Assembly (NCBI GenBank): GCA_964553935.1
Contig: CAZKNC010000001.1
Span: 1 to 29,189, forward strand
Source of the DNA: an uncultured Planctomycetia bacterium
GTDB lineage: Bacteria; Omnitrophota; Gorgyraeia; 1-14-0-20-64-10
Length of the DNA stretch: 29,189 nt
Direction of reading: 5' to 3'
Positions 4,094-29,189 of the stretch are shown piece after piece. Every line of letters begins with the position of its first letter. Positions within the stretch are counted from its first letter, which is position 1. The translations under genes were made by a program, and so were the position numbers. Below the pieces are notes generated by a model. That model made no database searches and had not been told where the DNA came from. It saw only the letters and a program-made list of their open reading frames with translations.

Positions 4094-4146
4094 ATCCGCA
4101 CTCCTACATACGACACATAGAGGAAAGGAAGGTTAATCAATTCAGC

Positions 4147-4350: not shown

Positions 4351-4393
4351 GGTCGAAAACGCGTCAAGCGCGTTCTGACCACGGGTTTTCCAG

Positions 4394-4428: not shown

Positions 4429-4438
4429 TGGAGGGGGC

Positions 4439-5074: not shown

Positions 5075-5141
5075 GCTACGCCCATGTTATCCGGACAGCC
5101 GGGGCGCGTCAACCGCCGGCTTTTGATAGGATAGTGGTGAA

Positions 5142-7821: not shown

Positions 7822-7827
7822 ACGCCT

Positions 7828-9222: not shown

Positions 9223-9255
9223 TCTTTAAACGAAACGACAAGGAGTTCAATCGAA

Positions 9256-14581: not shown

Positions 14582-14609
14582 TCCTTACGATGAATACCTT
14601 AGAGTTTAT

Positions 14610-14682
14610 GGCGCTATCGTCTAGTGGCCTAGGACGCATCCCTCTCACGGATGAAACACGGGTTCGATTCCCGTTAGCGCTA
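14610..14682 (+). tRNA. tRNA-Glu (anticodon CTC); CCA not encoded
   Basis: Acceptor stem GGCGCTA/TAGCGCT, D-loop CTAGTGGCCTAGG, anticodon stem CATCC/GGATG with CTC at 14644-14646, and T-loop GGTTCGATTCCC. Confidence 0.95.
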
Positions 14683-14692
14683 GGTACATAAG

Positions 14693-15043
14693 ATGATGAC
14701 CTGCATCTATTGCCAGCGCGAATTTGAGCCGTCCAAGTACCGGCGCACCCGTCAGCGGGCGTGCGGTGATCCGCCCTGCCAGAAAAAGCGTCAGCGGGAC
14801 AATCTGCTGGCCTGGCAGGAGAAAAATCCCCTTTACTACCGCATCAAGCGGATGGACCCGACCTGGAGAGGCAAGGCGCGCCTGCGGGCCAAGCGCTGGC
14901 GGATGGCGCACCGCGACAGGATTCAGGCCTATCGCACGGCGACCATGGATCAGTATCGGGTCTACATGCGGGAATACATGCGGCGGTATCGGGCCGTTTC
15001 AAAGACCAAGCCGGTCCAGCCGCCGGCTCCAACCCAAATTTAG
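14693..15043 (+). CDS. Small basic hypothetical protein with a putative Zn-binding C-x2-C-x16-C-x4-C motif
   Basis: CIYC...CGDPPC followed by an Arg/Lys-rich helical tail; lies between the tRNA and the next gene on the same strand. Confidence 0.65.
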   Translation: MMTCIYCQREFEPSKYRRTRQRACGDPPCQKKRQRDNLLAWQEKNPLYYRIKRMDPTWRGKARLRAKRWRMAHRDRIQAYRTATMDQYRVYMREYMRRYRAVSKTKPVQPPAPTQI

Positions 15044-15055
15044 GAGAGACGGCTC

Positions 15056-15313
15056 ATGAACAGTTCCTCGTTCAAAATTCTTGGAATCCTGTCGGTGGTG
15101 CTGAAGGTCTATTCTTTTTTGACCCTTTTTCTCATGGCCATCGGTGTGGTCGGGATTCTGATGGCGGGAGAGGCGACCGGCCCCCAGAAGTTCCAAATCC
15201 TGCTCAACATGGTTTTGGGCGGTACTCTTTTCTTCCTGGTTCTTTACACGCTGAGTGATCTGGTTCGGTTGATGCTGAAGATTGACGCTCAGACAAGTAA
15301 AGAATCTTCATAG
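15056..15313 (+). CDS. Small two-TM hypothetical membrane protein
   Basis: SD-like GGAGAG upstream, two hydrophobic helices and a C-terminal DLVRLMLKID motif. Confidence 0.7.
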   Translation: MNSSSFKILGILSVVLKVYSFLTLFLMAIGVVGILMAGEATGPQKFQILLNMVLGGTLFFLVLYTLSDLVRLMLKIDAQTSKESS

Positions 15314-15374
15314 CCAGCTAACGATATCGTCTTCCAGAACCGTCTCAAGCGTTCGGAATATCTTTTTCGAATGC

Positions 15375-15403
15375 TTGACTTCACAGAACCCATCGGGTAA
15401 CCT
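15375..15403 (+). promoter_or_regulatory. Sigma70 promoter of the TolC-MFP-RND operon, embedded in repeats
   Basis: TTGACT (15375-15380), 17-nt spacer, TAACCT (15398-15403). The -35 overlaps an 11-bp inverted repeat (15345-15355/15368-15378). Confidence 0.6.
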
Positions 15404-15425
15404 CTTCAACAGAAGAGAGACGGTT

Positions 15426-17210
15426 TTGAGACGGTTAATCCCACACTGGCTTTGTTTGACCTGCGGGTTCCTCTCGGCCTGCGGCGCGTTTGTCTGCCCG
15501 GCTTTTTCTGAAGATCAAACAATTACCCTCCAATCGGTTCGAGTTCTCCCCACCCTCGACGGCGATACGGTAGAAATTCAGTCCGATCAGCCCTTCTCAA
15601 TCGTCACTTACACGCTCTCTAATCCGGACCGGCTCATCATTGATCTTCTGGAAACCAATGCTTGGAGCTGGAGCGATTCGGTTTTGCCGGTCTCGGGTCA
15701 GCTCGTCCGCTCCTGCAGGTTTTATCCGCCGGCCGGGGCCAAATCGTCCGAGCAGGTCGATTATCTGGAACTGGTTTTGAAGGAACCCGCCGAGCATTTC
15801 GTGGAACCGGTTTCCGGGAAGCTTACCGTGCATCTGCGGCCAAAAGAGCCGTTCCTCCCGCCTACCCGCGGAGAAGCGCCCATCCTCGCACCGGTTTCCA
15901 CCCTGTGGAGTCTTCAGCAGGCCGAGCAGTTCGGCATTGGGCGGCATCGGCCGGTGCGGATCGCGCGGGAGGAGATCGAGCTGGCTCACGCCAAAGTGCG
16001 GGAAGCGCGCCGGGCGCTGTATCCGGCGGCCACGCTGAAATTCAGCTGGACCAACGGAACCGCGTCCCAGGTGGATTTCTCCGAATACACCACCGGTCTG
16101 CAGTTGGAACAGCCGCTCTATTATTCCGGCCGGCTGATGGAGGCGTACCGGCAGTCCCTGGTGAATCTGCAGGTGGCGGAGAAACGTTCCGGCAAGGTGA
16201 AAGCCGATTACGCCGTGGAGCTGGCCCAGGAATATTTTCAGCTCATCAGCGCGAAGGTCAGCCGCCGAGCCCAGGAGGGGCTGGCGGCAGAAACTGAAAC
16301 GTTCCTGGAAAAGGGGAAAGCGCGCTTCGAGAAGAAATTGCTCACCCAGCTGGAAATCCTCAACATCCAGTCCCAGGTCAACCAAGCCCGATTTCAGCGG
16401 GCCAACGCGGACAACGATGTCACCCTCGCGCGGCTGAAGTTTCTTCAAAAGCTGGCTCTGGAGCCGGGCACCTCCGTCGACGTTCCGGAAGAGTTCCAGA
16501 CGACTGCCCAGCAGGAGGTTGATCTGGAGGAAGCCCTGAAGCTGACGGCCCGCTACAAGCCGGAGATCCTGGTGAACAGTCTGCTGGTCAAGTTTCATGA
16601 ATACGAGGAGCGGATTGCCAAGGCGAAGCTCAAGTGGAAGGTGGATCTCTCCGGCTTTATCGGCGCTTCGGCGGCGGCGTTTGAAACCGAGCCGCTGGAC
16701 GCGGGAGAGGATTATTTCGTCGGTTTCAAGGCCACGCGGGCATGGGGCCCGCACAGCGCCACTGCTTCGGCGACCAAGACCAAAACCTCGCCGCGGCTGG
16801 GGCAGACCACCCGGACCGACTCGACCGTCTACTCGACTGAGATGGGCCTGTTCGACCAGCTGCAGGGCCTCACGGAAATCCAGCAGTCGCAGGTGAATCT
16901 TGAAAAAGCCCGGCGCGACTTGGAGGAATCCAAGAGCGCGGCTTTCCAGGAAGTCCATGAGTCTTATATCAGCTACCAAAAGGCGCGGCTCCAGCTGCAG
17001 TACGCCGATCAGAAGATCGCGTTTCGGGAGGAGCAGGTCAAGATTTTGAAAGCGCAAGCCTCCGTGAATGAAGCCCTTCCTTCGCAGGTTTTGGAAGCGG
17101 TCGTGAAGCTGACCGAAGAAAAAGTGGCCAGAGCGCAGGCGATGGGCAGCTACTACGCGGCGTTGGCGAAGCTCAACAAGGCCGTCGGCCTGCCCGGACA
17201 TTACCGTTAA
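15426..17210 (+). CDS. AMIN domain fused to a TolC-family outer membrane channel
   Basis: TTG 15426 after GAAGAG, then a signal-peptide-like segment ending PAFS. The AMIN-like region includes VEIQSDQPF..YTLSNPDRLIIDL. TolC-like repeats include EARRALYPAATL, LEQPLYYSGRL and YYAALAKLNKAVG. Confidence 0.85.
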   Translation: MRRLIPHWLCLTCGFLSACGAFVCPAFSEDQTITLQSVRVLPTLDGDTVEIQSDQPFSIVTYTLSNPDRLIIDLLETNAWSWSDSVLPVSGQLVRSCRFYPPAGAKSSEQVDYLELVLKEPAEHFVEPVSGKLTVHLRPKEPFLPPTRGEAPILAPVSTLWSLQQAEQFGIGRHRPVRIAREEIELAHAKVREARRALYPAATLKFSWTNGTASQVDFSEYTTGLQLEQPLYYSGRLMEAYRQSLVNLQVAEKRSGKVKADYAVELAQEYFQLISAKVSRRAQEGLAAETETFLEKGKARFEKKLLTQLEILNIQSQVNQARFQRANADNDVTLARLKFLQKLALEPGTSVDVPEEFQTTAQQEVDLEEALKLTARYKPEILVNSLLVKFHEYEERIAKAKLKWKVDLSGFIGASAAAFETEPLDAGEDYFVGFKATRAWGPHSATASATKTKTSPRLGQTTRTDSTVYSTEMGLFDQLQGLTEIQQSQVNLEKARRDLEESKSAAFQEVHESYISYQKARLQLQYADQKIAFREEQVKILKAQASVNEALPSQVLEAVVKLTEEKVARAQAMGSYYAALAKLNKAVGLPGHYR

Positions 17211-17224
17211 CCCGAGGAGTTCGG

Positions 17225-18433
17225 ATGCTTAAACGTCTCCGTGTCATTCTGATTTTCGGCTTGGTTCTTTTCGGGGGATTTGTCCTCGTCAATGGGCTGC
17301 TGCCTAAACTGCTCCAGGGGCCCCAGGTGACCCGCTTGCCGCCGGGAGTCCGGCCGGCCGGGGCCCCCACCGTTTCCGAGGATGCTTTGCCGATCCCGGT
17401 GCGGATTTTTAAAGCCGCGCGGATCGAATTCACCGATCTCCTGCCGGTTTTGGGGACCGTGCGGGGCCAGTCGGAAGTGGAGCTGAAGTTCGAGGTCAAT
17501 GGCACGCTCAAGAACTTGGATTTCCGGGAAGGGGATCTGGTTAAAAAAGGGCACGTGATGGCAATCCTGGACGACAAAGAGCCGCAGCTGAAGCTGGAGT
17601 ACGCCGAGTCCAAGAAACAGACGGCGCAGGCCCAGCTGAAGCTGGCCCAAAAACGGCTTTCGGTGAACGAACAGCTCTACCGGCTGGGAGCGATCATCCT
17701 GCCGAAGCTGGAAGAATCTCAGATCGAGGTTGAACAGGCCCAGACGCAGGTGGAAACGGCCGTCAAAGAGGCCAACATCGCCCGGAACGACATCGCTCGC
17801 ACTGTTCTGAAAGCTCCCATGGACGGAGTGGTCGGCACGCGGCAGGTTGAGGCGGGGGAATACGTCAGCCCTCAGTCGGTGATCGCCACGCTGATGGAGG
17901 TCAGCTCGGTCTTCGTCGAGGTGGGAATCATCGAGCGGGACATCGAGCGGATCCGGCTGGGACAGCGGGTGAAGGTCACGGTCGATTCTCTGCCGAACAC
18001 GACCTTTGAAGGGCGGGTCGACAACCTGGCTCCGCTGATCGAAGGGAAGTCCCGCACGCTCACCGCGAAAGTGAAGGTGGAGAACGCGCAGGGACAGCTC
18101 CTGCCGGGCATGTTCGCCCGCTGCGACATCGCGGTGTTCGAAAAACCGGACGCATTGGTCGTTCCGACCGCCGCGCTCAAGGATGCGGACGGGGATGGCA
18201 AGTTCGAATCGGTCTTCGTGATTCAAGAGGAGAAAGCGGTCTTAAAGCCGATCACGCTGGGCTACCTCACCACCGATTACGCGGAAATCACGCAGGGGAT
18301 TCAGGAAGAAGAGCAGGTGGTGACCGAAGCCCGCGGCAACCTGAAAGAGGGATCCGCCGTCACCTTCCTCGAGGAAGAGGAGGCGGCGTTCCAGCGAACC
18401 GAACCGGACGCGGGCCAGGAGGGTCCGCGGTAA
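17225..18433 (+). CDS. RND efflux periplasmic adaptor (membrane fusion protein)
   Basis: N-terminal TM anchor, lipoyl halves (FEVNGTLKNLDFREGDLVKKG; LKAPMDGVV), an alpha-hairpin and LLPGMFA. Confidence 0.93.
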   Translation: MLKRLRVILIFGLVLFGGFVLVNGLLPKLLQGPQVTRLPPGVRPAGAPTVSEDALPIPVRIFKAARIEFTDLLPVLGTVRGQSEVELKFEVNGTLKNLDFREGDLVKKGHVMAILDDKEPQLKLEYAESKKQTAQAQLKLAQKRLSVNEQLYRLGAIILPKLEESQIEVEQAQTQVETAVKEANIARNDIARTVLKAPMDGVVGTRQVEAGEYVSPQSVIATLMEVSSVFVEVGIIERDIERIRLGQRVKVTVDSLPNTTFEGRVDNLAPLIEGKSRTLTAKVKVENAQGQLLPGMFARCDIAVFEKPDALVVPTAALKDADGDGKFESVFVIQEEKAVLKPITLGYLTTDYAEITQGIQEEEQVVTEARGNLKEGSAVTFLEEEEAAFQRTEPDAGQEGPR

Positions 18434-18437
18434 ACGG

Positions 18438-21400
18438 ATGAGTCTGACCCGCGCCAGCATTCGCCGGCCCGTCACGACCGTCATGATGGTCCTGGGGGTC
18501 GTCCTCCTGGGCGTCATCGCCTGGACCCGTCTGCCCCAAGAACTGTACCCGCCGATCAATTACCCGCAGTTGACCGTCGTGACCCGCTACAAGGACGCGG
18601 CTCCCGAAGAGATCGAACTGCTGGTCACCAAACCGATTGAAGAAGTGGTCGGCACGGTCTCGGGTCTGCGCCGGATCAGCTCCATCTCGAAGGAAGAGAT
18701 GTCCCTCGTCATTGCGGAATTCAACTGGGATACGCAGATGGATTTCGCGGCGCTGGGCGTGCGGGAGAAAATCGACCTGATTAAAGAACGCCTCCCTCGT
18801 GGTTCGGAAGACCCGGTGGTCATCAAATACAACCCCTTCGAACTTCCGGTGATCGTGCTGAATCTTTCCGGAGAACGCCATCCCCACGAACTTCTGACCC
18901 TCGCCCGCAAGCAGGTCAAGATTGAGCTGGAAAAACTGGAAGGGGTCGCTGTGGTCAACCTTTCCGGCGGGCTGGAGCGGGAGATTCTGATCGAGGTGGA
19001 CCAGGGCCGCCTGCAGGCGGCCGGCCTGCCTATTTCCCACGTGGTTGACGGACTTTCCAAAGCCAACCTCCATTATCCGGCCGGCACCATCAAGGAGGCG
19101 TTCTACGAATACCTCATCCGGACGATGGGGGAATTCTCGCTGGTTCGGGAAATCCCCGGCATCGCCGTGGGCGTGGATGAGAAAAAGGACGACCCGGAGA
19201 AGGAGTTCCAGAAACGGATGGAACGGCAGGGCCCTCTGGAGAAAGAAAAGGGGCTGGGCCCCCAACAGCGCCTCATCCTGCTCAAGGATGTGGCGACCGT
19301 CAAAGACACTTATCGCGATCGGGATTCCATTTCCCGCTACAAAGGCCGGGACAATGTCAGTTTGAGCATCCAAAAGCAGTCGGGCGCCAATACCCTTCAG
19401 TTGGCCAAGCAGGTGAAAGAGGCCCTCGGCCGGATCCGCCAATCGCTTCCTCCCGGCATTGAGCTCAGCGTGGCTTACGATCAATCGCTGGCCATCGAGA
19501 GCTCGGTCAACGGGGTTTTGATCGAAGCCCTGCAGGGCGGCGCGCTCGCGTTCGGGATTTTATTCCTGATCCTGGGCAATCTCTGGTCCGCGATCAATGT
19601 GTCGTTCGCGATTCCGATTTCGATCATGGCGACGATCGCTCTCATGTATTTCAGCGGGATCACCATCAACGTGATCTCCATGGGCGGGCTCGCTCTGGGG
19701 ATCGGTATGCTGGTCGACGCCGGCATCGTGGTCGTGGAAAACGTTTCCCGTTACCGAGAGAAAGGAGTTCCTCCCCGCGAAGCGGCCATCGAAGGAACCG
19801 CGGAGGTGGCCAGCGCGATCGGCGGGTCGGTCTTGACCACCATCGTGGTTTTCCTGCCGATGGTGTTCGTGGTCGGCATCGCCGGCCAGTTGTTCAAAGA
19901 GCTGGCCTATACCGTCACCTTCGCTCTGCTGGCCAGCTGGGTGGTTTCCCTGACGCTGACCGCATTGTTTGCTTCCAAGTACCGCGGTTCAGGACGGAGC
20001 CGTTCTCCCATCGAGCCGATTCTGCAGCGGCTCTACCGGGCGGACCAACGCGCGGTCCAGTGGTTTCTGCGCAACCGGATGGTGGGCGCAGCGGCGATGG
20101 TCGTCCTGCTGGTGGCGTCCCTCGTGGTTCTCAAAGGGCTGGACCGCGAGGTATTGCCGCGAGTCGATCAGGGCCAATTCATTCTCCGTGTGGATCTTCC
20201 CCCCGGCACCCGCTTGGACGTCACGAATCGGGTGGCGACCCGGGTGGAGAGGGTCCTGCAGGCCATGCCGGAGGTGCGGGACCTGACGGTCACGATCGGT
20301 TCCTCCAAAGAAAAAAGAGCCGAAGAGCTTCTGGAAACCCTGGGTTCTCACCAATCTCAGATCCTGGTGAATCTTTTTGGAAAACCCCAGCGCACCCGGA
20401 AAACGGCGGAAGTCGTCCAGGAGCTGAAGGAGACCTTGGGCCGGGAACCTCTGGAAGGAGCCGAAATCGAGTACCTTCTTCAAGAGTCGATTTTTAAATC
20501 AGCTTTCCTGGCCGGGGCGCCGGTGGTGGTGGAGGTCAAAGGGACGGACCTGGGCCGGTTGGAGACGCTGGCCCTCGGTATGCGCAAGGAGATGGAAGCG
20601 GTTCCCGGATTGTACGGCGTAAAAACCAGTTTGATCCCGCCCTCTCCCGAAACCAAAGTCCGAGTTTTGAAAGACCGGGCCGCTACCTATCATCTTTCGG
20701 TCAGCGACGTGGCGCTCACCGCGCAGACCGCCTTCAAGGGATTCATCGCCACCAAATTCAAGGAGGAAGGCAAAGAAATCGACGTGCGGGTCCGCCTGCG
20801 GGAGCAGGATCGCCGAGATATGAGCCGGATCCGGCAGATGCTGGTTCACTCTCCGCTGGAGATCGACGTGCCGCTGGCGGAAGTGGCTTACCTCTCTCTC
20901 GGAAAAGGTCCGACGGAAATCCGGCGCATGGATCAACAAAGGACCGTGCTGGTTTCCGGGCAGGTTGCGCGCAGGGCGCTCAGCGACGTCCTGAAAGATG
21001 TCGAAGCTGTTTTGAAGAAAGACAAGGTTCCCACCGGCTACAGCGTGGCGATCACCGGAGAACGGGAAGAGATGCAGGAATCGTTTCGGTCCCTGATCTT
21101 CGCGCTGGCTCTCTCCATCCTCCTGGTTTACATGGTGATGGCCTCGGAGCTTGAATCGCTCTGGCAGCCGTTTCTCATTATGGTGACGATGCCGATGTCT
21201 CTGATCGGCGTGGCCCTTGGATTGTACGTGACGCACACGCCCATCAGCGTCATGGTGGGGCTGGGGATGATCGTCCTGGGCGGTGTGGTGGTGGATAACG
21301 GGATCGTGCTGGTGGAATTTATCAATGAACTGCGCCGGGAGGGAATGGGTTTGGAAGAGGCGGTGGCGGAGGCCAGCCGGATCCGGTTAAGACCGATCCT

Positions 21401-22124
21401 GCTCACCGCCGGGACCACGATTTTAGGACTGCTGCCCATGACGCTGGGCCTCCAACAAGGGGCCGAGCTTCAGATTCCCATGGGCGTCACGATGATGTGG
21501 GGTCTGGCCGTTTCGACGTTCTTGACGCTGATTTATCTTCCGACCGTTTACGTGATCGGCGCGCGATTCTTTGAGAGACTAGAGCGGGTGTTCCAGGTTT
21601 CACCCATGCCTGCGCCGGCGCTGCAGATGGCCGGTCCGCTTCCATCTGTTGAGACGGTTCCAGAACCGTATCAGGAGCCGCCTCCGAAAGAGCCGCCGAT
21701 GCCGGTTGAGCCGCTGCCGGCTCCCCCGGAGCCCTCTCCTGAACTTCCGGAAATTCCGGAGGGCTACGGGAGCGAGGAAGTTGTGACCGATCGCTCTGAT
21801 TTTCCGATTATTCTCCCGGGAGAAATCTTGCTTCCTCCGGAACCGCCCGTCGAGGAGGCCTTCGCCCCGCCGACGTTGCCGGAACCTTTATTTGAGGAGC
21901 CGCCGGAAGAAACCGTTCACCCTGCTAAAGTTCCACTCAACCCGCGCCAGGAAAAACTGCTGGAACATCTGAAAAGCCACGGGCGAATTTCCCGCAAGGA
22001 ATATGTCGAGCTGACAGGAGCTTCCGTTCCGACGGCCGCTCGCGACCTGAAGGAGCTGGTCGACCAGGGATGGGTCCGAGGCGTCGGTCCGCTGGCGCGG
22101 GGAAGATACTATGTCCTTGCCTGA
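18438..22124 (+). CDS. RND permease (AcrB/MdtB-like) with a C-terminal Pro/Glu-rich linker and winged-HTH
   Basis: RRPVTT, TM4 GMLVDAGIVVVEN, TM10 GVVVDNGIVLVE and RLRPILLT. The tail from ~21604 is Pro/Glu-rich, and LNPRQEKLL...DLKELVDQGWVRGVG begins at 21936. Confidence 0.93.
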   Translation: MSLTRASIRRPVTTVMMVLGVVLLGVIAWTRLPQELYPPINYPQLTVVTRYKDAAPEEIELLVTKPIEEVVGTVSGLRRISSISKEEMSLVIAEFNWDTQMDFAALGVREKIDLIKERLPRGSEDPVVIKYNPFELPVIVLNLSGERHPHELLTLARKQVKIELEKLEGVAVVNLSGGLEREILIEVDQGRLQAAGLPISHVVDGLSKANLHYPAGTIKEAFYEYLIRTMGEFSLVREIPGIAVGVDEKKDDPEKEFQKRMERQGPLEKEKGLGPQQRLILLKDVATVKDTYRDRDSISRYKGRDNVSLSIQKQSGANTLQLAKQVKEALGRIRQSLPPGIELSVAYDQSLAIESSVNGVLIEALQGGALAFGILFLILGNLWSAINVSFAIPISIMATIALMYFSGITINVISMGGLALGIGMLVDAGIVVVENVSRYREKGVPPREAAIEGTAEVASAIGGSVLTTIVVFLPMVFVVGIAGQLFKELAYTVTFALLASWVVSLTLTALFASKYRGSGRSRSPIEPILQRLYRADQRAVQWFLRNRMVGAAAMVVLLVASLVVLKGLDREVLPRVDQGQFILRVDLPPGTRLDVTNRVATRVERVLQAMPEVRDLTVTIGSSKEKRAEELLETLGSHQSQILVNLFGKPQRTRKTAEVVQELKETLGREPLEGAEIEYLLQESIFKSAFLAGAPVVVEVKGTDLGRLETLALGMRKEMEAVPGLYGVKTSLIPPSPETKVRVLKDRAATYHLSVSDVALTAQTAFKGFIATKFKEEGKEIDVRVRLREQDRRDMSRIRQMLVHSPLEIDVPLAEVAYLSLGKGPTEIRRMDQQRTVLVSGQVARRALSDVLKDVEAVLKKDKVPTGYSVAITGEREEMQESFRSLIFALALSILLVYMVMASELESLWQPFLIMVTMPMSLIGVALGLYVTHTPISVMVGLGMIVLGGVVVDNGIVLVEFINELRREGMGLEEAVAEASRIRLRPILLTAGTTILGLLPMTLGLQQGAELQIPMGVTMMWGLAVSTFLTLIYLPTVYVIGARFFERLERVFQVSPMPAPALQMAGPLPSVETVPEPYQEPPPKEPPMPVEPLPAPPEPSPELPEIPEGYGSEEVVTDRSDFPIILPGEILLPPEPPVEEAFAPPTLPEPLFEEPPEETVHPAKVPLNPRQEKLLEHLKSHGRISRKEYVELTGASVPTAARDLKELVDQGWVRGVGPLARGRYYVLA

Positions 22125-25100
22125 TGCTTCCATCCGCCGTCCGGTTACGGTCAGCATGGTTTGTCTGGCCCTGGCGGTCCTCGGCGGGATCTCGCTAAGC
22201 CGCCTGCCGATCGAGCTGTACCCCAACTTCAGTTTCGGCGACATCTCCATCATCATCAACATCCGCGGGGGTATGCCGCCCGAGGAGGTTGAAAACCAGG
22301 TGACCCGGCCCGTCGAAGACAACGTGGGAGACGTCAGCCACCTCAAGGATATGATCTCGATTTCCGAGGAAGGCCGCTCCCGCGTGGTGCTGACCTTCGA
22401 GCCGGGCACCGACATGGATTTCGCCGCCCTGGAGGTGAGGGAAAAGTTCTCGAAAGTCCGTTCGAAGCTTCCCAAAGAGATCGAAAAACCGATCATCGCG
22501 AAATTCGAGCAGGAAGACGTGCCGGTCCTGATCCTCGCGGTCACCGCGCCGGATTACACACCGGAGATGCTGCGCCGCCTCGTGGACGAGGAGATCAAAG
22601 ACCGGATCATGCGGGTGGAGGGGGTGGCCAACGTCGACGTCGGAGGGGGGCGGGAGAGGAAGATTCTCGTCGAGATCAATCTGGAAAAGCTCCAGGCATT
22701 CCGCCTGCCGGTGGACCGGGTCACCCGGCTCTTGAGCGTGAGCAATCTCAATATGCTGACCGGAGAGATGGACCGTTCCCGCAGCAAGTATCTGATTCGG
22801 GCCATCGGGGAGTTCGAATCCATCCGGGAAATCGAGGAGCTCGGAATCGCCGTTACCCCCTCCCGTTCGGTGATCCGCCTCAAGGATGTGGCGGTCGTGA
22901 AAGATTCGTTTCTCGAGGCCACAAGCTACGCCCGGGTCAACGCGCTGCCGGTGGTCTCTCTCTACATTCAGAAGGAGACGACCTCCAACACGGTGCAGGT
23001 GGTCGGCCGGGTGATGAAGGTCCTGGACCAGTTCAAGCAGGATCCCCGTTTGCCGAAGGAGCTTCGATTCATCGTGACCCACGATCAGTCCGTGCAGATC
23101 GTTCGGGCCATTGAACTGGTGGGATCGGCTCTCATCAGCGGCGGCACGCTGGCGATCCTGGTGCTGGGGGCTTTCTTTTCCACCCATTGGATTCCGCGGT
23201 TTTTATTCATTCCGTTGGCCGCCGCGGTGACCGCGCTGGCGGTCGCCACATACCGGTTTGGGGGCATTCCGGTCCACACGATCAACGGGCTGGTCAACGG
23301 TCTTCTGGCGGTGCTGCTGCTGACGGCGATCTTGTGGAAGCATCTGCGCCTGACTTTGATCGCCGCCATCGCTATTCCCGTGGCCACCATGATCACGTTC
23401 GGGTTCATGTTCTTTCTGAATCTGCTGGCCAAGAACGTCGGTTTCATGAGTTTGACGCTCAACGTGATGACGCTGGGCGGCCTGGCGCTGGGCGTGGGGA
23501 TGCTGGTGGATAACGCGGTCGTGGTCATCGACAACGTCGTCAAGCGCCGCGCGAAGGGCGAGAGCCCGCGGGCGGCGGCCGGGGAAGGAGCCGCCGAGAT
23601 GCTGCTGGCGATCGCGGCTTCGACCTTAACCACCGTCATCGTTTTCCTTCCGCTGGTGTTCATCAACAAAGAGATCCGGATTCTGTACATCGGTTTCGCG
23701 CTCACGATCTGTTTTTCCCTGCTGGCTTCGCTGGTGGTGGCCCTCTCGGTGGTGCCGCTCATGGCGTCCCGGATTTCTTTTCCGGTGGTGACGGCCGCTC
23801 CTTCCGGACGGGGCCGCGGGCTGAAGCTGAAGGAACGCTACCGCGGATTCGTGATCGGTGTTCTGCGCTGGCGCTGGGCGGTGGCGCTGTGCGTGTTTTT
23901 CCTGGCCGCGGCCGGATTTCAGATCTACCGGTCGATCCCGAAGGAGTTTTTAGGGACCGCCGAGGCCGAAGATTTCACGGTGTTCGTGGAGCTTCCCAGC
24001 GGCGCGAAGCTGGAAATCTCCGACGACGCGGTCGCCAAAATCGAGAAGATCCTGAAAGACGTTCCGGAGATCAAGTCGGTTTCCTCCCGCGTGGAGAAAT
24101 CCTCGTCCAAGATTTACGTCAAGCTGGTCCCGCTGGCCGAGCGATCCCGCTCAACCAAGGACGTGATTGATTCCCTGCGGCCTCCGGTCGAAGAGGTGGA
24201 GCGAGGATTCCGGGAAGCGTTCGTCTACTTTGAAGAGCCGCACGAGGTGGAGTCGAACGAGGTGATCCTGGAGATCTACGGGTGGGACTATGAGGTCTTA
24301 AACCAGCTGGCCGTGGAAATGCTTAAGAGGATGCAGGCGGTGCCCGGCTTGACGGATCTCAAGATCCGCTGGCGGAGGGGAAGGCCGGAATGGCTGGTTC
24401 GTGTGGACAAGATTAAAGCCGCCCGCTATGGGCTGTCGGTGGAGGAGGTCTCCCAGTCCCTTCACGCGCAGATGCGGGGTTTGCGGGCCACGCTGTATCA
24501 CACCGAGTCCAAGGAGGTTGAAGTCGTAACCCGGCTGGAAGAGGCCGACCGCGCCACGCTGGACAAGCTGCGCCGGATCACCTTCACGCTGCCCAGCCGG
24601 GAAGTCATCTTCTTGGAGCAGGTGGCGAAGCTGGAACCGGCCATCGGCCCCTCCAAGATCTGGCGCAAGAACAAACAGCGAATGATCCAGGTCAGCGCCA
24701 ACCGCGGGCGATACGCGTTCGGGGAAGCCGCGCAGAAGGTGTACGGCGCCATTCATGAGATGCCTTTCCCCGAAGATTACTACTGGCGGTTCGGGTCCAA
24801 TTACCAGAAACTGCTTCAAAACCAGAAAGAGCTTGCTCTGGCGCTCGTTCTTTCGGTGCTGCTCATTTTCCTGGTTTTGGCTTCTCTTTTTGAGTCCCTG
24901 ATCCAGCCCTTTATCGTGATGGTTGTTGTGCCTCTGGCGGCCTTTGGAGCTTTCCTGACGCTCCGATTGGCCCATCAAGCCCTTAATGTCGGAGCTTTAA
25001 TGGGGTTGATCCTTCTGGGCGGCGTGGTGGTGAACAACGCGATCATCCTGGTGGATGAAGTGAACCGTCTCCTAGGCAACGGCTATCGGGTTCGAAGGGC

Positions 25101-25374
25101 GGCGGTTTCGGCCGCGATCAGCCGGGTTCGGCCGATCGCTGTCACTTCTTTTACGACCATCCTGGGGCTGCTTCCGCTGGCGATGAGCCGGACTGAAGAA
25201 TCCAGTCTCTGGGCACCGATGGCTTTGGTGGTTATCGGTGGGATGACCGTATCAACTTTCTTAACCCCTATCGTCGTCCCGTCTCTCTACCTGGTTTTAG
25301 ATGATCTTAAACGGATTACCCATCTGATACGGTTTAAAAAGAAGCCAAACGCTTTGCCTGTAACAGTATCATAA
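22111..25374 (+). CDS. Second RND permease (AcrB/MdtC-like) with an extra hydrophobic insertion after TM2
   Basis: RRPVTV, GMLVDNAVVVIDN, GVVVNNAIILVD and RVRPIAVT; 14-nt overlap with the first permease. Confidence 0.93.
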   Translation: MSLPDASIRRPVTVSMVCLALAVLGGISLSRLPIELYPNFSFGDISIIINIRGGMPPEEVENQVTRPVEDNVGDVSHLKDMISISEEGRSRVVLTFEPGTDMDFAALEVREKFSKVRSKLPKEIEKPIIAKFEQEDVPVLILAVTAPDYTPEMLRRLVDEEIKDRIMRVEGVANVDVGGGRERKILVEINLEKLQAFRLPVDRVTRLLSVSNLNMLTGEMDRSRSKYLIRAIGEFESIREIEELGIAVTPSRSVIRLKDVAVVKDSFLEATSYARVNALPVVSLYIQKETTSNTVQVVGRVMKVLDQFKQDPRLPKELRFIVTHDQSVQIVRAIELVGSALISGGTLAILVLGAFFSTHWIPRFLFIPLAAAVTALAVATYRFGGIPVHTINGLVNGLLAVLLLTAILWKHLRLTLIAAIAIPVATMITFGFMFFLNLLAKNVGFMSLTLNVMTLGGLALGVGMLVDNAVVVIDNVVKRRAKGESPRAAAGEGAAEMLLAIAASTLTTVIVFLPLVFINKEIRILYIGFALTICFSLLASLVVALSVVPLMASRISFPVVTAAPSGRGRGLKLKERYRGFVIGVLRWRWAVALCVFFLAAAGFQIYRSIPKEFLGTAEAEDFTVFVELPSGAKLEISDDAVAKIEKILKDVPEIKSVSSRVEKSSSKIYVKLVPLAERSRSTKDVIDSLRPPVEEVERGFREAFVYFEEPHEVESNEVILEIYGWDYEVLNQLAVEMLKRMQAVPGLTDLKIRWRRGRPEWLVRVDKIKAARYGLSVEEVSQSLHAQMRGLRATLYHTESKEVEVVTRLEEADRATLDKLRRITFTLPSREVIFLEQVAKLEPAIGPSKIWRKNKQRMIQVSANRGRYAFGEAAQKVYGAIHEMPFPEDYYWRFGSNYQKLLQNQKELALALVLSVLLIFLVLASLFESLIQPFIVMVVVPLAAFGAFLTLRLAHQALNVGALMGLILLGGVVVNNAIILVDEVNRLLGNGYRVRRAAVSAAISRVRPIAVTSFTTILGLLPLAMSRTEESSLWAPMALVVIGGMTVSTFLTPIVVPSLYLVLDDLKRITHLIRFKKKPNALPVTVS

Positions 25375-25501
25375 CCATCTCAATTAAGAATACCATCCTC
25401 GCTTAATTAGGCACTATAAGCCATCCATTCTGAAGCCCTATGAATTGTACTTAAATAAGTAATTATATAAAGTCAGTTAAAATATCTAATATAAGGAAGT
25501 C

Positions 25502-25531
25502 TTGACGATCGAAATGTGTGGATGGTATATT
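25502..25531 (+). promoter_or_regulatory. Candidate distal sigma70 promoter upstream of the riboswitch
   Basis: TTGACG (25502-25507), 18-nt spacer, extended -10 TG-g-TATATT (25523-25531). Confidence 0.5.
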
Positions 25532-25679
25532 TACACTGTCGGTCAAACGCAAGGGGGGAACAGGGATGAATTCTCATTTCATGGAACTCCGCAATTGCTT
25601 TGGTTTTAAAGGCCTCTTTTCAGTGCTGAAGGGGTTTTCTTTCGGCCATTTTGTTATGACATTGGAAAAGTATTTGAGC

Positions 25680-25709
25680 TTGATTTTATATCCAATACGC
25701 AGTTATGAT
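25680..25709 (+). promoter_or_regulatory. Candidate proximal sigma70 promoter that would start transcription just 5' of the aptamer
   Basis: TTGATT (25680-25685), 18-nt spacer, TATGAT (25704-25709); predicted +1 about 10 nt before the aptamer. Confidence 0.45.
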
Positions 25710-25725
25710 TTAGAAGTTCTACTCC

Positions 25726-25821
25726 CCGATAAAGGCAAACTCGCCGTGAGGCGAGGGCGCAAAGCCACGGATCCCGGATTCTTTAGTATTTTAGAGAATG
25801 GCGGGACAGCCGGGTTGCCGA
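25726..25821 (+). ncRNA. Cyclic di-GMP-I (GEMM) riboswitch aptamer
   Basis: AAAGGCAAAC, P2 stem CTCGCC-GTGA-GGCGAG with a GNRA loop, GGCGCAAAGCCACGG, an extended P3, and GACAGCCGGGTTGCCGA. All match the GEMM-I consensus as I know it. Confidence 0.88.
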
Positions 25822-25863
25822 CTAAAGGATAAAACCAGAAGGAACGGATGAGTCGACAGCCCG

Positions 25864-28800
25864 GTGAATAATTATCGCCACTTTTATAGGCACCATTCTT
25901 CGGTGAAAGAAAGTTCGCCGGAGGTGGAGGGCGCGATCCTGGAATGGAACGCGCCTCGCCGTCGACCTATTCTGCGTTCCGTCGCTTCGCTGACCTGCTT
26001 TGCTTTCGTCATTACCCAGCTTCCGATCCGCCCGGCCTTGGCCGTCGCTCCCCAGGAAGTCGTCACTTTGGGGAACCTCAGCAACATGACCAACGTTGCC
26101 AACCTCGCCACCTTGAATGAGCGCCGCCAATCTCTGCTGAACCGGCTGGAGCGGGAGCGGAATATTCAGGCCAGTGTGGAGGCCGGCTGGCTGACGGCGA
26201 ACGCCGGGGTCGCGCACAACCTTCAGACGCTGAACATCGACATTTCCCGGGCGCGCGAAGCGATCGAGCGGACCGGAAGCCAGGGCGCCTCAAGGGTTCA
26301 GGAGTTGGCCGGTGTGGTGGCCTCTCCCGCGACCACCGGCACGCTGGAATTCAACTACATGCCGGTTCGCAACACCGCCGGCGCCCCGGCCGGCCGCGAA
26401 TGGATGAAGATCTATTTCCGCAACAATCTGGCCAGCCGTGTTCTGGGAGAATGGGTTTCCTCCGCCGGCGGCGGTTTCCTGCGCGATACGTCCAGCATGA
26501 AGTACAACAGCAACCGGCTGCTCCAATCCTACGAGGCCGTCGAATACCGGCAGATTCCAGGCATGCTGGGCGGACGGCTGACTTTGAGGACCATCCGATG
26601 GACCGGCAACTGGACCTCCGATTCAAAATTTTACGCCAGCACGGAGACGGTTGCGGTGCGGCAGCTGCTGGACGAGCGGATTGAAACCACCACGTACAAC
26701 ACCTGGACCCAGGCCGACATCGACCGCTTGCTGACCAAGCTGGCCGAAGTGGAAAGCAAGGTCACCTCGGCCGCCGAGGTGGCTTGGGCGGTGGCCATGC
26801 GCAAGGAGCTGTCGGAAGGAGCGATCGCGGACGGCAAGACCACCCAATTCACCGGGGTTACGGAGCGGTTCTATGAACAGCATGATCGGAACCGCCCGCT
26901 GGCCTGGCGGCAGATCACCACCGATCCCACGGGTGTCACGGAATCGCACGTGACGGTCACCTACATGGGTCCCAAGGACAACAAGCTGTCGAACTATCTG
27001 GAAGAGGGCGTCCGAAAATCCAACCTGATCACCCAGGACGATTACGAACATTACCAGGCCTGGCTGGCCCAGGTGACCGCGGAAGGGACTTTGAGCGCCG
27101 AGCAGTTGACGGCGCTGAAGGCCGCCATGGACCCCATCAAGCCGGGGCAGACGACTGAGACCTTCTTCACCACGGAGCGGACGTATTTCGATTACACCAA
27201 GGACGGCGACCCGCTGCATTTCAAGGAACGGAGGGTTTCGTCCGATTCTTCGGTGGTGACCGAGACCGACTCCACGCTGGTCTACGATGAGCAGCGGCGG
27301 GTGGTTCGGCAGACGGATGTCCGCACCGAGAACGGCGCCTACACCTCCAAGGATATGGAAGCTTTTTGGGCGATGGTACTGGAGGCGGAGCGCAAGGGGA
27401 TCGATGCCGTGGTTGCCGAAGCGGAGTTCGCCGGGGATCTGCGCCGGAAGCTGGAGACCGGAGAGCTCTCCGCCGGGTCGGCCTTCAGCCGGACGGTCGG
27501 GGTGGTGCGCGAGAGTTTCTTGTACAACGAAATGCTTCAGCCGGTGGAGTGGCTTCAAACCACGACGACCGGCGGCACGAAACTGGTCGAGCATTATTTT
27601 GCCTATCACAACGACGCGCAGGGACGGAACCTGGATCTGCTGATCTTATCCGATGAGGAGACCGTCTACACCGCTGAGGATCAGGAACAGCTGCGCCGGG
27701 AAGCGCGGGCGATTCTGAACGCATCGGATTCTAATGACGCGGACCGAGAAGCGGCCCGCGAGCTGCTCCGCCAGCTGAACAGCGGAGATTTTCCAGCCGT
27801 CTTCCGGCGGTCGAGCGTCCGCTACCGCGGCGAGATCGTTTACAACGCGGCCGGGCTACCGATCCAGTACACCGAATATTCCACCTCCAACGCGGACCAG
27901 CTCCTGACCGTGACCGAAGCTCAAGGCCTTCAGTACGACACCAATGGACGGGAGCTTTCCGGTCTTCGGATCACCCATCGGACGGGAGTCGGCACGCGGA
28001 CGGTTTACCGGCTTCCGGACGGGGCGGAGCTGACTCCTTCCATGCTGGAGCAGATGCTGAGGACCCATTCCAGCAGCGGTGACCGGGCGACTCTTCAGGA
28101 GTTGATCGATGCCGGCTTGATCCGAGCTGTCGGCGCTCAGGACAACCCGTTGACCGAAGAGCAGATTGAACAGATCCTGCGCGAGAATCCGATGACGACG
28201 GACGGCGAACCGCGGCCCATGACGCTGCAGGAAGCGATGACGGCGAACTTGCTGGTCCTCTCCGGCTCCGGCGGCGTCTTGCTGGACGAGGCGGCGGTTG
28301 TCCAACTGCTCCGAGAGCAGTCCGTTGCTCCGAACATCGCGACGCTGGAAGAGATGATCGCGCTCGGGCTCATTCAAGCCGACAGCCAGGTTCCGTTCAT
28401 GCTGGATCAGAGAACCATCTCGTACCGGCATGAGACGGTTTATGACAGCATGGGCCGCATCGTCTCGGTGGTGGAAAACAGCGTCGATCCGTCCAGCGGC
28501 CTCCAGACGACGACCCGCTCTTACGGAACCACGTACGACTCCGAAGGAAGGCAATTTTCTTCTTTGACGGAGAGCCGACAGTACGGCAGAACCATCCGGA
28601 CCGGGCTTTTCTTTACCGGAACGGAGAACGAGCTCGATCCGATCGAGCTCCATACGGAGATCGAGCAGAACGGCCTTTCACTGAGCCAATTGATCGAGCA
28701 GGGCGTGATCGAGCGCCGCGAGGTCGACACGGAACTGGATCAGACCACCTTCAGCTACCGCCAGCAGACCCGCTATTACGATTCCAACCAGGTGGAGGGT

Positions 28801-29189
28801 TTCACCGACATCGTCAACACGCTGGGTTTCGGCAGCGATAACATCACGGAGCGGCAGGCGGCCTCGCTGATCCGCTTCAACGACGCGGGCCAGCAGGTGA
28901 GCCAGCTGCTGGTGAGCACCCGCATCGGCACGGACACGCGCACGGTCCACAAATTTGACGGTCGGGACCTCACCTATCTGGATGAGGAGTTCCAGGAAGC
29001 GCTTCATGAAGCCGGCGGCATGAAGCAGCTGATGCGCAGCGGCCGGATTACCGTGGAACATAGGCCGACCGTGGTCAATACCCGGACCTCCACATTCCGC
29101 AGCCACGTGGAGTACGACCGGTCCACCGGTTTCCTCAAAAACCAGGCTGACTTCTCCAGCGGAGACCTTAACCACGGCGTCAATCGGGC
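25864..29189 (+). CDS. Very large exported protein with YD-like/helical modules, 3'-partial (absent from the ORF track); start uncertain (GTG 25864, 25903 or 25924, or CTG 25939)
   Basis: Manual translation of frame 1 finds no stop from 25852 to the window end (more than 1080 codons from any candidate start). Signal-peptide-like RRRPILRSVASLTCFAFVITQLPIRPALA, then recurrent YD-x-x-GR motifs. Confidence 0.9.
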   Translation, partial: MNNYRHFYRHHSSVKESSPEVEGAILEWNAPRRRPILRSVASLTCFAFVITQLPIRPALAVAPQEVVTLGNLSNMTNVANLATLNERRQSLLNRLERERNIQASVEAGWLTANAGVAHNLQTLNIDISRAREAIERTGSQGASRVQELAGVVASPATTGTLEFNYMPVRNTAGAPAGREWMKIYFRNNLASRVLGEWVSSAGGGFLRDTSSMKYNSNRLLQSYEAVEYRQIPGMLGGRLTLRTIRWTGNWTSDSKFYASTETVAVRQLLDERIETTTYNTWTQADIDRLLTKLAEVESKVTSAAEVAWAVAMRKELSEGAIADGKTTQFTGVTERFYEQHDRNRPLAWRQITTDPTGVTESHVTVTYMGPKDNKLSNYLEEGVRKSNLITQDDYEHYQAWLAQVTAEGTLSAEQLTALKAAMDPIKPGQTTETFFTTERTYFDYTKDGDPLHFKERRVSSDSSVVTETDSTLVYDEQRRVVRQTDVRTENGAYTSKDMEAFWAMVLEAERKGIDAVVAEAEFAGDLRRKLETGELSAGSAFSRTVGVVRESFLYNEMLQPVEWLQTTTTGGTKLVEHYFAYHNDAQGRNLDLLILSDEETVYTAEDQEQLRREARAILNASDSNDADREAARELLRQLNSGDFPAVFRRSSVRYRGEIVYNAAGLPIQYTEYSTSNADQLLTVTEAQGLQYDTNGRELSGLRITHRTGVGTRTVYRLPDGAELTPSMLEQMLRTHSSSGDRATLQELIDAGLIRAVGAQDNPLTEEQIEQILRENPMTTDGEPRPMTLQEAMTANLLVLSGSGGVLLDEAAVVQLLREQSVAPNIATLEEMIALGLIQADSQVPFMLDQRTISYRHETVYDSMGRIVSVVENSVDPSSGLQTTTRSYGTTYDSEGRQFSSLTESRQYGRTIRTGLFFTGTENELDPIELHTEIEQNGLSLSQLIEQGVIERREVDTELDQTTFSYRQQTRYYDSNQVEGFTDIVNTLGFGSDNITERQAASLIRFNDAGQQVSQLLVSTRIGTDTRTVHKFDGRDLTYLDEEFQEALHEAGGMKQLMRSGRITVEHRPTVVNTRTSTFRSHVEYDRSTGFLKNQADFSSGDLNHGVNR

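Follow-up and report, generated by a model that had tools for sequence, protein, structure and literature searches.

A putative c-di-GMP-switched giant-protein gene beside an MdtABC-like RND cassette with a winged helix-turn-helix tail in Omnitrophota

Pumps of the resistance–nodulation–division (RND) family such as MdtABC-TolC of E. coli and MuxABC-OpmB of Pseudomonas are encoded by two adjacent paralogous permease genes and one adaptor gene. The same arrangement occurs in the locus described here, on a 29,189-nt contig of an uncultured Planctomycetia bacterium whose GTDB lineage is Omnitrophota (assembly GCA_964553935.1, contig CAZKNC010000001.1). The entire contig was analysed and is called the window. 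It carries a four-gene cassette (OEP, a TolC-family outer-membrane channel; MFP, a periplasmic adaptor or membrane fusion protein; and the permeases RND1 and RND2) followed by a gene for a giant repeat protein, the 3' part of which lies beyond the contig end. A giant repeat surface protein encoded together with a TolC-family channel and an adaptor is also known from LapA/LapEBC with LapD-LapG in Pseudomonas, where cyclic di-GMP (c-di-GMP) decides deployment. Here, by contrast, c-di-GMP would act through an RNA switch and not through LapD/LapG, an RND pair sits at the inner membrane, and neither the window nor related cassettes contain an ABC transporter gene. The giant has an N-terminal Sec-type signal in place of a type I signal, its C-terminus being beyond the contig.

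Giant proteins of Omnitrophota have been described as beta-helical tubules with exterior helices (doi 10.1101/2023.11.21.568195), a description that the repeat model of the window's giant matches in its long antiparallel strands and helices at regular spacing, and complete genomes of the phylum encode a median of 2 proteins of at least 10,000 aa (doi 10.64898/2026.06.07.730766). Our giant shares with the surveyed ones the phylum, orthologues of at least 5062 aa and a signal peptide, and giants that follow the cassette in other clades bear the published hallmark SecA_DEAD or dockerin domains. The surveys report type II/IV secretion genes upstream of giants and PilZ and sugar transporter genes downstream (doi 10.1101/2023.11.21.568195; doi 10.64898/2026.06.07.730766). 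The window differs in having no type II secretion genes: housekeeping genes and the RND cassette lie upstream, and the downstream region is beyond the contig. The terms RND, TolC, efflux and riboswitch are absent from the text of both surveys (doi 10.1101/2023.11.21.568195; doi 10.64898/2026.06.07.730766). On the regulation and deployment of Omnitrophota proteins of 5,000 to 150,000 aa, this locus offers two handles: a putative c-di-GMP ON riboswitch before some giants, and a recurrent pairing with an envelope machine and a shared cis-element.

We propose, with roughly even confidence, that pump and giant are two adjacent units that are regulated together and controlled separately, and that the pump is probably not the giant's exporter. 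The features of the locus are as follows.

14609–14683: tRNA-Glu(CUC), preceding small1
14693–15043, + strand: small1, a 116-aa basic protein, zinc-ribbon-like
15056–15313, + strand: small2, an 85-aa small membrane protein with two hydrophobic segments
15376–15404, + strand: cassette promoter-like element TTGACT-N17-TAACCT, 5' of OEP
15417–15436, + strand: operator-like tandem repeat, site 1, GAGACGGTT-TT-GAGACGGTT, overlapping the OEP start codon
15282–17210, + strand: open reading frame (ORF) of OEP, the TolC-family outer-membrane channel, with probable start TTG at 15426
~15510–15850, + strand: N-terminal AMIN domain of OEP
17225–18433, + strand: periplasmic adaptor (MFP)
18438–22124, + strand: RND1, whole gene
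18438–21569, + strand: RND1 permease core, 12 transmembrane helices
21570–21917, + strand: RND1 Pro/Glu-rich cytoplasmic linker, ~115 aa
21936–22124, + strand: RND1 C-terminal winged helix-turn-helix (wHTH) domain
22111–25374, + strand: RND2 permease
23167–23301, + strand: RND2 insert, two extra hydrophobic helices between transmembrane helices 2 and 3
25362–25381, − strand: operator-like tandem repeat, site 2, GAGATGGTT-AT-GATACTGTT, spanning the RND2 stop codon
25502–25531, + strand: sigma-70-like promoter TTGACG-18-TATATT with extended TG, in the AT-rich spacer
25725–25823, + strand: c-di-GMP-I class riboswitch aptamer, Rfam RF03167
25852–25866, + strand: putative sequestor strand GUCGACAGCCCGG plus GUG start, pairing with the aptamer 3' strand at 25809–25822
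25864–29189, + strand: giant ORF from GTG, 5' part, at least 1108 aa, open at the contig end
25957–26043, + strand: giant signal-peptide-like segment, aa 32–60, followed by a coiled-coil-like segment and then the repeats
26284–26709, + strand: domain X of the giant, ~133 aa, an N-terminal module
26695–29187, + strand: giant tandem repeats, at least 8 of ~105 aa

A sequence-only reading of the window had named six elements here (a channel with AMIN, an adaptor, RND1 with a wHTH tail, RND2 with extra transmembrane helices, a c-di-GMP riboswitch and a giant signal-peptide protein). All six are present and lie on the + strand, as do all plausible genes in the ORF listing of the whole window. That reading began the region at 15338; the operon begins further upstream, with the small genes at 14693–15043 and 15056–15313.

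To place the locus, one genome per GTDB species was scanned. Relatives of RND1 were found on at least 407 contigs, and 80 loci were retrieved, all from Omnitrophota, some of them filed as 'uncultured Planctomycetia'. ORFs in these loci were labelled by BLASTP against the window's proteins, and an RND1 neighbour-joining tree gave five clades. All of them have the cassette, a core module of the phylum.

Clade I: rearranged order, OEP ... RND1-RND2-MFP, with domain-X proteins between OEP and RND1
Clade II (that of the window): OEP-MFP-RND1(wHTH)-RND2, with a homologous giant in 6 of 7 informative loci
Clade III: same order as clade II, with SecA_DEAD+LysM giants in 4 of 6
Clade IV: RND1 without the tail, with dockerin-type or other giants in 3 of 6
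Clade V (the largest): same order, with the tail, and a giant in 0 of 11

The association was counted in a forward test on species loci, in which a giant was an ORF of at least 1300 aa starting within 1.5 kb 3' of the cassette. Such an ORF followed the cassette in 13 of 39 informative loci, compared with 7 of 228 other evaluable genes in the same loci (odds ratio 15.8, Fisher p = 7e-8, with kinship disregarded); the adjacency is not chance. The giants of clades II, III and IV differ in architecture (SecA_DEAD+LysM, dockerin, TPR+GT2 and YD-like) and are not homologous. No adjacent giant is present in the other 26 of the 39 loci, among them that of L001, the closest relative, and every one of the 11 from clade V. 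L001 and L002 (70% RND1 identity) share the upstream housekeeping genes and the cassette with the window; downstream they encode a 978-aa PP2C-domain protein and proteins with carbohydrate-binding modules, and no giant. The reverse test covered the window's giant family only, in few and closely related loci (6 metagenome and 2 database homologues). An RND permease gene lies directly upstream in all 8, namely RND2 in 7 and a presumed permease ORF of 976 aa in the eighth. The expectation that the two would travel together across genomes was therefore borne out in part: giants stand beside the cassette beyond chance and the window's giant family has an RND gene upstream in these 8 loci, but the cassette mostly occurs without a giant.

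The giant gene is preceded by its own promoter-like site, which matches the consensus at 10 of 12 positions, and by an aptamer of the c-di-GMP-I-GGC family (RF03167; 69.7 bits against a gathering score of 59, E = 8.9e-15). The promoter-like site lies in the AT-rich spacer of ~350 nt between RND2 and the riboswitch; GC drops to 0.48 in 25001–26000. Described c-di-GMP-I (GEMM-I) riboswitches likewise have an aptamer above the Rfam gathering score and a surface-protein gene downstream. Here, however, the GGC variant is the best model, and the predicted platforms are start-codon sequestration in clade II and a terminator in clade IV. At a position where the consensus of that model has G, the window has A (ACGCAAAG), as in canonical c-di-GMP-I, and the region presumably equivalent to Vc2 G20, A47 and C92 reads canonical by eye. 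Orthologous aptamers score 60–72 bits (in L004, L009, L014, L050, L070 and others). A covariance model built from five Rfam-confirmed aptamers was searched in all loci and in metagenome loci. Aptamers lie between RND2 and the giant gene in the window, L004, L009, L010 and L014, and in L050 and L047 of clade IV, with weaker matches in L083 and L011. In clade I they lie between OEP and RND1 (L061, L065, L070 as a tandem pair, L071, L082 and L044), and Rfam confirms three in L070. Neither Rfam nor the covariance model found a riboswitch before clade III giants.

In the minimum-free-energy fold of clade II, the aptamer 3' strand CCGGGUUGCCGAC is complementary to GUCGACAGCCCGG at 25852–25864, which ends at the GUG start; this start position is kept as GUG or AUG in orthologues. 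Across 11 orthologues, 89.7% of cells in the sequestor helix are paired, compared with 17–46% in slid controls, and 4 pairs are changed on both sides. In clade IV (L050, L047), that aptamer strand instead has its complement in a downstream segment that runs into 8 consecutive T, and the two form a predicted intrinsic terminator. Since ligand binding would withdraw the shared aptamer strand in each design, both platforms predict that c-di-GMP turns the giant gene on. The helix itself is shown by covariation, and the direction of switching is deduced. Within the same region, AUGAGUCGACAG (25848–25871) contains a kept AUG, 16 nt 5' of the giant GUG and in another frame, which opens a 7-codon mini-ORF overlapping the sequestor. 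This AUG is kept in L009, L010, L011, L014 and L094, and the mini-ORF could be a leader peptide or merely part of the helix.

The riboswitch also recurs with one module of the giant. Domain X (aa 141–282 of the window's giant) was found by an iterated hidden Markov model (HMM) in 14 proteins (E = 1e-37 to 1e-55), and in 5 of 6 clade I aptamer loci the next gene encodes a 600–840-aa protein with this domain. A c-di-GMP riboswitch with a domain-X protein is thus a conserved unit beside or inside the cassette, in two gene arrangements, and we regard it as the strongest argument for a functional link to the cassette. In L070, two tandem c-di-GMP-I aptamers (4432–4745; 69 and 71.5 bits) stand before one domain-X gene, and a third lies 2.6 kb upstream, before a 751-aa gene. 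A prepilin-like gene lies between the domain-X genes and RND1 in L061. Clade I also has a conserved leader of its own, AGGGrCTGGCA-N12-18-AGGGGGTAA followed by a long hairpin and a T-run, ~60–150 nt 5' of RND1 (L053, L059, L060, L064, L070, L080 and L044), which matched no known Rfam family at the E-value threshold of the search.

The second line of evidence concerns the C-terminal tail of RND1, which consists of the ~115-aa Pro/Glu-rich linker and a ~62-aa domain. Pfam assigns the domain to HTH_DeoR (27.5 bits, cut-off 21) and HTH_24 (25.8 bits) at aa 1167–1214. An AlphaFold2 model from 20 sequences has the canonical H-beta-H-H-beta-beta wHTH fold, with a predicted local distance difference test score (pLDDT) of ~90 in the core. 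Its best PDB neighbours in Foldseek are the Coxiella Fic2 C-terminal wHTH (TM-score 0.71), the DNA-bound centromere protein AspA and MarR/ArsR proteins; Fic2 wHTH, AspA-DNA, MarR and ArsR all have probability 1.00, at TM-scores of 0.62–0.71. Across 18 orthologues that are only 51–73% identical overall, 13 tail residues are invariant, including those of the recognition-helix motif S-x-P-T-A-A-R-D-L, and the linker is variable and Pro-rich. The C-terminus of RND permeases is cytoplasmic by established topology. An exhaustive phmmer search that used the tail as query on 1.84 billion representatives yielded 548 matches (E <= 1e-3), and 9 of 10 top matches sampled are RND permeases or their C-terminal fragments; the RND-wHTH fusion is therefore a large, specific family. 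It comprises several hundred clusters at 50% identity, annotated at source as 'efflux RND transporter permease subunit', and text searches of the literature found no paper describing it. Tail-related wHTH modules also occur as tandem arrays, with 8 copies in P0127 (581 aa) and 4–7 copies in P0139, P0141 and P0236 (2496–5140 aa).

Proteins such as ToxR, CadC and TcpP also hold a wHTH at the inner membrane, where it could couple an envelope signal to a promoter. The ToxR/CadC type has an N-terminal OmpR-type wHTH, one transmembrane helix and a periplasmic sensor, whereas here a C-terminal MarR/DeoR/ArsR-like wHTH follows a long Pro-rich linker on a 12-helix transporter. If the tail binds the repeat described below, RND1 would control genes directly, as few transporters of any class do.

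A candidate operator for the tail is present at the cassette promoter. In clade II, a promoter-like element TTGACTT-N16/17-GTAAsCT is kept 5' of OEP in 8 loci (it falls below the threshold of a generic promoter scan) and is followed by a tandem GAGACGGTT-N2-3-GAGACGGTT. In general form, the tandem repeat GAkACnGTT-N1-3-GAkACnGTT sits 6–26 nt 3' of the cassette promoter. A degenerate scan for two GAkACnGTT motifs 10–13 nt apart found 37 sites in 28 real loci and 1 in shuffled loci. Nearly all sites lie no more than ~110 nt from the OEP start; their strand is + in clades II and III and − in clade V. Those of clade III are found in non-coding sequence immediately 3' of −10-like elements. Taken singly, the 9-mer is enriched as well, with 17 matches in the window against 7.6 +/- 2.7 expected, and tandem sites flank the window's four-gene cassette at 15417–15436 (+) and 25362–25381 (−). 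We considered whether GAGACGGTT is a Shine-Dalgarno sequence or an artefact of coding for an 'MRRF' N-terminus, given that the second half-site overlaps the clade II start codon. A DNA-level element fits better because the tandem of clades III and V lies in non-coding AT-rich DNA after −10-like elements, and on the opposite strand in clade V. An inverted repeat at 15345–15378 was also tried as the operator and was rejected, as it is not kept in relatives.

The repeat tracks both the tail and the giant. A site near OEP is present in 22 of 37 loci with an RND1 tail and in 1 of 10 without it (p = 0.01, ignoring kinship), and the sole tail-less locus with a site, L038, has a frameshifted tail by tblastn. 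Clade IV has neither tail nor repeat, yet keeps small1, and clades II, III and V have no DNA-binding domain in common other than the RND1 tail. The second site, at the RND2 3' end, is present in 7 of 15 loci with a downstream giant and in 0 of 24 without one (p = 4e-4, again ignoring kinship); the giant-less close relative L001 lacks it. The tandem repeat is thus a candidate operator for the wHTH tail. The sequence-only reading had transport status fed back to DNA through the wHTH. An operator-like repeat at the promoter and, in loci with giants, at the RND2 end fits this idea, the binding itself being suggested by co-occurrence.

The pump components resemble heteromeric RND pumps in architecture. 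RND1 and RND2 match Pfam ACR_tran near full length (E = 1.6e-226 and 1.7e-211), with an alignment break in RND2 near aa 340–394. Both align full-length to MdtB, MexB and AcrB, with an AcrB-type fold of 12 transmembrane helices and two large periplasmic loops, and the best PDB relative of each is MdtB (9lyq_B, E = 5.9e-95, for RND1; E = 8e-91 for RND2). The two are ~32% identical to each other, their genes overlap by 14 nt (22111–22124), and the tandem pair is kept in nearly all loci; by analogy, they may form a mixed trimer like MdtB2C. The top named NCBIfam models are MdtC and MdtB/MuxB for the permeases and MdtA/MuxA for the adaptor, ahead of AcrB, AcrD and OqxB.

In contrast to MdtABC and MuxABC, all permease scores are far below the family cut-offs. 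No NCBIfam model is passed by either permease (RND_permease_1/2, 647 and 599 bits against 1250; the equivalogs MdtC, 376 against 1774, and MdtB, 363 against 1584), and RND1 and RND2 are not one-to-one orthologues of MdtB and MdtC. Further differences are the wHTH tail, the two extra RND2 helices and the in-operon channel gene with AMIN. The proton relay also differs. In AcrB it consists of D407 and D408 in transmembrane helix 4 and K940 in helix 10. Aligned to MdtB, which reads VVDDA and VKKNA in these columns, RND1 reads LVDAG and VVDNG and RND2 reads LVDNA and VVNNA. The D-D pair of helix 4 is thus D-A in RND1 and D-N in RND2, the Lys of helix 10 is Asp and Asn, respectively, and D-A/D and D-N/N replace the D-D/K relay. 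In RND1 the sites are aa 427–428 and 953 (window ~19716–19722 and 21294–21296). As the canonical AcrB relay is not kept, 'efflux pump' is here a label of architecture and not of substrate. The single Asp in helix 4 and single Asp in helix 10 of RND1 form a symmetrical arrangement, which presumably recalls the relays of MmpL/HpnN/Patched type. The extra helices of RND2, noted already from sequence, form an insert of ~45 aa (aa 353–397) with two hydrophobic stretches of 18–19 aa between helices 2 and 3. Alignments to MdtB and Pfam show it as a gap. Clades II and IV and L028 have the insert; clades I, III and V lack it.

OEP matches the Pfam OEP family in two stretches (E = 2.3e-29); its NCBIfam scores are below the cut-offs (TIGR01844, 69 bits against 225; TIGR01845, 30.6 against 210). 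Read from TTG 15426, the protein starts MRRLIPHWLCLTCGFLSAC, a lipobox-like signal peptide as read from the sequence. AMIN, a periplasmic domain reported as a peptidoglycan binder in PilQ and AmiC, scores 17.2–17.3 bits in the window's OEP, below the Pfam cut-off of 20.5; among orthologous OEPs, 15 of 38 do match it (best E = 2.5e-7). A profile of the clade's OEP N-terminus searched against the whole PDB matches solely the AMIN regions of PilQ (4.9e-4) and AmiC (6.2e-4), which identifies the N-terminal domain as AMIN at the level of sequence profiles and agrees with the original assignment. Through it, by analogy, OEP may be held to peptidoglycan. Compared with the AMIN of the PilQ secretin and the AmiC amidase, the domain is here fused to a TolC-family channel, and other clades have TonB_C or TPR in the same place. 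Between clades, the channel has thus swapped its N-terminal periplasmic module: of the 38 orthologues, 15 have AMIN, 5 have TonB_C and 5 have TPR. Orthologues with exchanged modules include L021, L023, L031 and L034 of clade V.

The adaptor matches Pfam HlyD_D23 (E = 7.3e-32) and passes NCBIfam RND_mfp (241.6 bits, cut-off 94.9). By these matches it is an ordinary adaptor without unusual features, and the earlier statement that every pump component departs from ordinary efflux architecture was too strong. Of the two small proteins, small1 has four invariant Cys and a C-terminal YMRxYMRxYR motif, and had no match in searches of Pfam, NCBIfam or PDB. It is kept directly 5' of OEP in four clades, with BLASTP matches in 11 loci (clades II and IV, L016 and L071). 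In clade IV it overlaps the OEP start, which indicates translational coupling to OEP there. In the window, small1 begins 10 nt past tRNA-Glu(CUC). Homologues of small2 (82–84 aa) occupy the same position in L001, L004, L013 and L014, in the window's clade only, and Pfam and NCBIfam returned no family match for it.

The giant has orthologues of at least 5062 aa and at least 3424 aa. Its conserved N-terminus has an RRR n-region, a ~20-aa hydrophobic stretch and an A-x-A motif (aa 32–60), as would suit either a Sec signal peptide or an uncleaved anchor. Tat export was considered for the RRRP motif and appears unlikely: the motif departs from S/T-R-R-x-F-L-K, and Tat would hardly take a substrate of >5000 aa. 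Pfam gave no domain in the first 1107 aa. A repeat HMM finds 8 copies from aa 278 to the contig end (i-E-values of 1e-14 to 4e-29), each of which AlphaFold2 models as a helical hairpin and four long antiparallel strands with YD-like motifs (pLDDT 73.7). This model rests on 5 sequences; the giant's own paralogous repeats could not deepen the alignment, as MAFFT aligned orthologous positions. Searches for homologues of the giant returned 2 proteins with the single sequence and 4 with a 10-sequence profile. In L094 (9236–14341) the 'giant' gene is complete at 1902 aa, and separate ORFs of 744 aa and at least 930 aa come next; the giant may be split there, or the assembly or a frameshift may have produced the break.

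The giant had been called a YD protein, which holds at the level of motifs and not of family membership. Y-D-x-x-G-R motifs recur in its repeats, as they do on the beta-hairpins of RHS/YD proteins (the Tc toxin components TcB/TcC, teneurins and Rhs effectors), but the repeat unit here is ~105 aa with a helical hairpin. Pfam RHS_repeat has no match in the window's giant and matches 2 of 16 related giants at E = 0.015. Foldseek gives no PDB match at E <= 1e-3, with TcdB2-TccC3 in 7th place (E = 0.07, TM-score 0.15) and teneurin-4 in 18th.

These observations can be combined as follows. Unit 1 (14693–25374) would be an operon encoding an MdtABC-type tripartite envelope pump driven by protons, with a lipoprotein-like TolC-family channel held to peptidoglycan through AMIN. 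Its substrate would most likely be a small or amphiphilic envelope molecule and not a protein. By binding the GAkACnGTT tandem, the RND1 tail may make transcription of the pump genes respond to how much pump the membrane holds or what state it is in, and the second copy of the repeat, at the RND2 stop, faces the giant gene, so that the tail could also touch the junction. Unit 2 (~25502 to beyond 29189) would have its own promoter-like site and c-di-GMP-I riboswitch. Without ligand, the aptamer 3' strand would pair with the start-codon region; bound c-di-GMP would lock this strand in the aptamer and free the GUG, and the Sec-exported, beta-rich giant repeat protein would be made. Through the shared repeat, pump and giants are probably co-regulated as one cell-surface programme, of attachment or predation.

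Several observations weigh against this proposal. The forward-test statistics, as stated, ignore kinship between loci. The co-occurrence of tail and repeat, from which binding is deduced, amounts to about one loss event, in clade IV. The tandem scan found no repeat in clade I, which has the tail, and 15 tail-bearing loci have no detectable site. The repeat could be bound by small1 or by another regulator. No strong terminator was found between RND2 and the giant gene, and transcription from RND2 may read through into it. The non-canonical relay of both permeases makes energy coupling, as well as the word 'efflux', uncertain. For the tail in particular, we consider it rather unlikely, though a serious alternative, that it is no transcription regulator but a protein–protein docking module or a non-specific nucleoid tether, with small1 or some other factor on the repeat. 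The tandem arrays of related modules (8 copies in P0127 and several in proteins of 2496–5140 aa), the C-terminal wHTH of a Fic protein as best structural neighbour and the clade I tail without detected repeat would all agree with such a role. The 13 invariant residues with their recognition-helix motif, the DNA-bound AspA and the MarR/ArsR repressors among the structural neighbours, and the absence of the repeat from tail-less clade IV, where small1 is present, argue for a DNA-binding tail.

Two further explanations concern the pairing itself, and we rank both below co-regulation of the giant with a separate pump. That pump and giant are neighbours without any functional link, the cassette being a housekeeping efflux pump and the giants adjacent by inherited order or at a site that tolerates long inserts, seems to us unlikely. 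The cassette is phylum-wide, and fumarase, the MetE-like genes, the chlorite-dismutase-like gene, VIT1 and the tRNA are equally syntenic in the window's clade, so that gene order there is largely inherited; moreover, the two surveys of giant neighbourhoods name type II/IV secretion, PilZ and sugar transport and not RND or TolC. This explanation has to contend with the enrichment over other genes in the same loci (odds ratio 15.8), the lack of homology between giants of different clades, the domain-X genes inside the rearranged cassette of clade I and the restriction of the second tandem repeat to loci with a giant. Less probable still is the role first suggested for the cassette, a dedicated export, assembly or anchoring apparatus, in which AMIN-TolC, adaptor and double RND carry or retain the giant, or a cargo that it encloses, at the outer membrane as a Sec-dependent, RND-powered analogue of LapA/LapE. 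Adjacency to unrelated giants in clades II, III and IV, riboswitch-controlled domain-X proteins embedded between OEP and RND1 in clade I, type II secretion genes (GspF, pseudopilin) after the clade V cassette, secretin-type periplasmic modules on OEP (AMIN, TonB_C or TPR), the non-canonical relay and the extra RND2 helices can all be read in its favour. However, 26 of 39 loci, among them L001 and every clade V locus, have no adjacent giant, and the RND2 insert does not track giant presence. No ABC or other protein translocase is present, and there is no sign that a Sec-exported protein of >5000 aa could be moved by an RND pump: the porter domains of AcrB and MdtBC are established to take small substrates from the periplasm or membrane. 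Because the cassette mostly lacks a giant, there is no protein translocase and the giant gene has its own promoter-like site and riboswitch, export or enclosure of the giant by the pump is not supported. The most far-reaching version joins everything into one surface-deployment system and is, in our view, a long shot. The AMIN-anchored channel would be conduit or retention site for Sec-exported giant beta-helical proteins, RND-driven and LapA/LapE-like with another motor; the tethered wHTH would report pump occupancy to both operators, and pump state (at DNA) and c-di-GMP (at RNA) would be combined before a protein of >5000 aa is made.

Each component of the locus is of a known kind: an RND tripartite pump, AMIN, a wHTH, a GEMM-I riboswitch and an Omnitrophota giant. 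In the literature searched, we found no AMIN-, TonB_C- or TPR-TolC fusions, no RND-wHTH fusion with a matching cis-element, no riboswitch control of Omnitrophota giants and no statistical link between such a cassette and giants. Co-regulation of the two units, if the pairing is functional, would link second-messenger signalling and envelope transport to the predatory or episymbiotic surface apparatus of an uncultured phylum.

Other clades and the remainder of the window provide further observations. In clade V, the genes 3' of RND2 encode an unknown 396-aa protein, a GspF homologue, a T2SSJ-like pseudopilin, YchF and PurH, and a ROK-family regulator gene lies directly 5' of OEP (L021, L025–L027, L031, L039, L072 and L079). 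Positions 1–14543 of the window hold housekeeping and accessory genes, for aconitase, Fic, BrnT, a VTT-domain protein, MFS, an AsmA-like protein, fumarase, two MetE-like proteins, a xylose-isomerase-like TIM barrel, a ThiI-like protein, a chlorite-dismutase-like protein and VIT1. The block 9256–14543, with the two small MetE-like genes, the xylose-isomerase-like TIM barrel, the ThiI/NFACT-R-like gene, the chlorite-dismutase-like gene and VIT1, is syntenic in the relatives L001 and L004, at 63–70% RND1 identity. A low-GC island (0.48 against ~0.60) covers 3001–4000, just 3' of the Fic-domain gene (1919–2860). Inside it lie a BrnT-type toxin gene (3211–3495, E = 9.9e-22) and an overlapping 91-aa ORF (3443–3718), its possible antitoxin.

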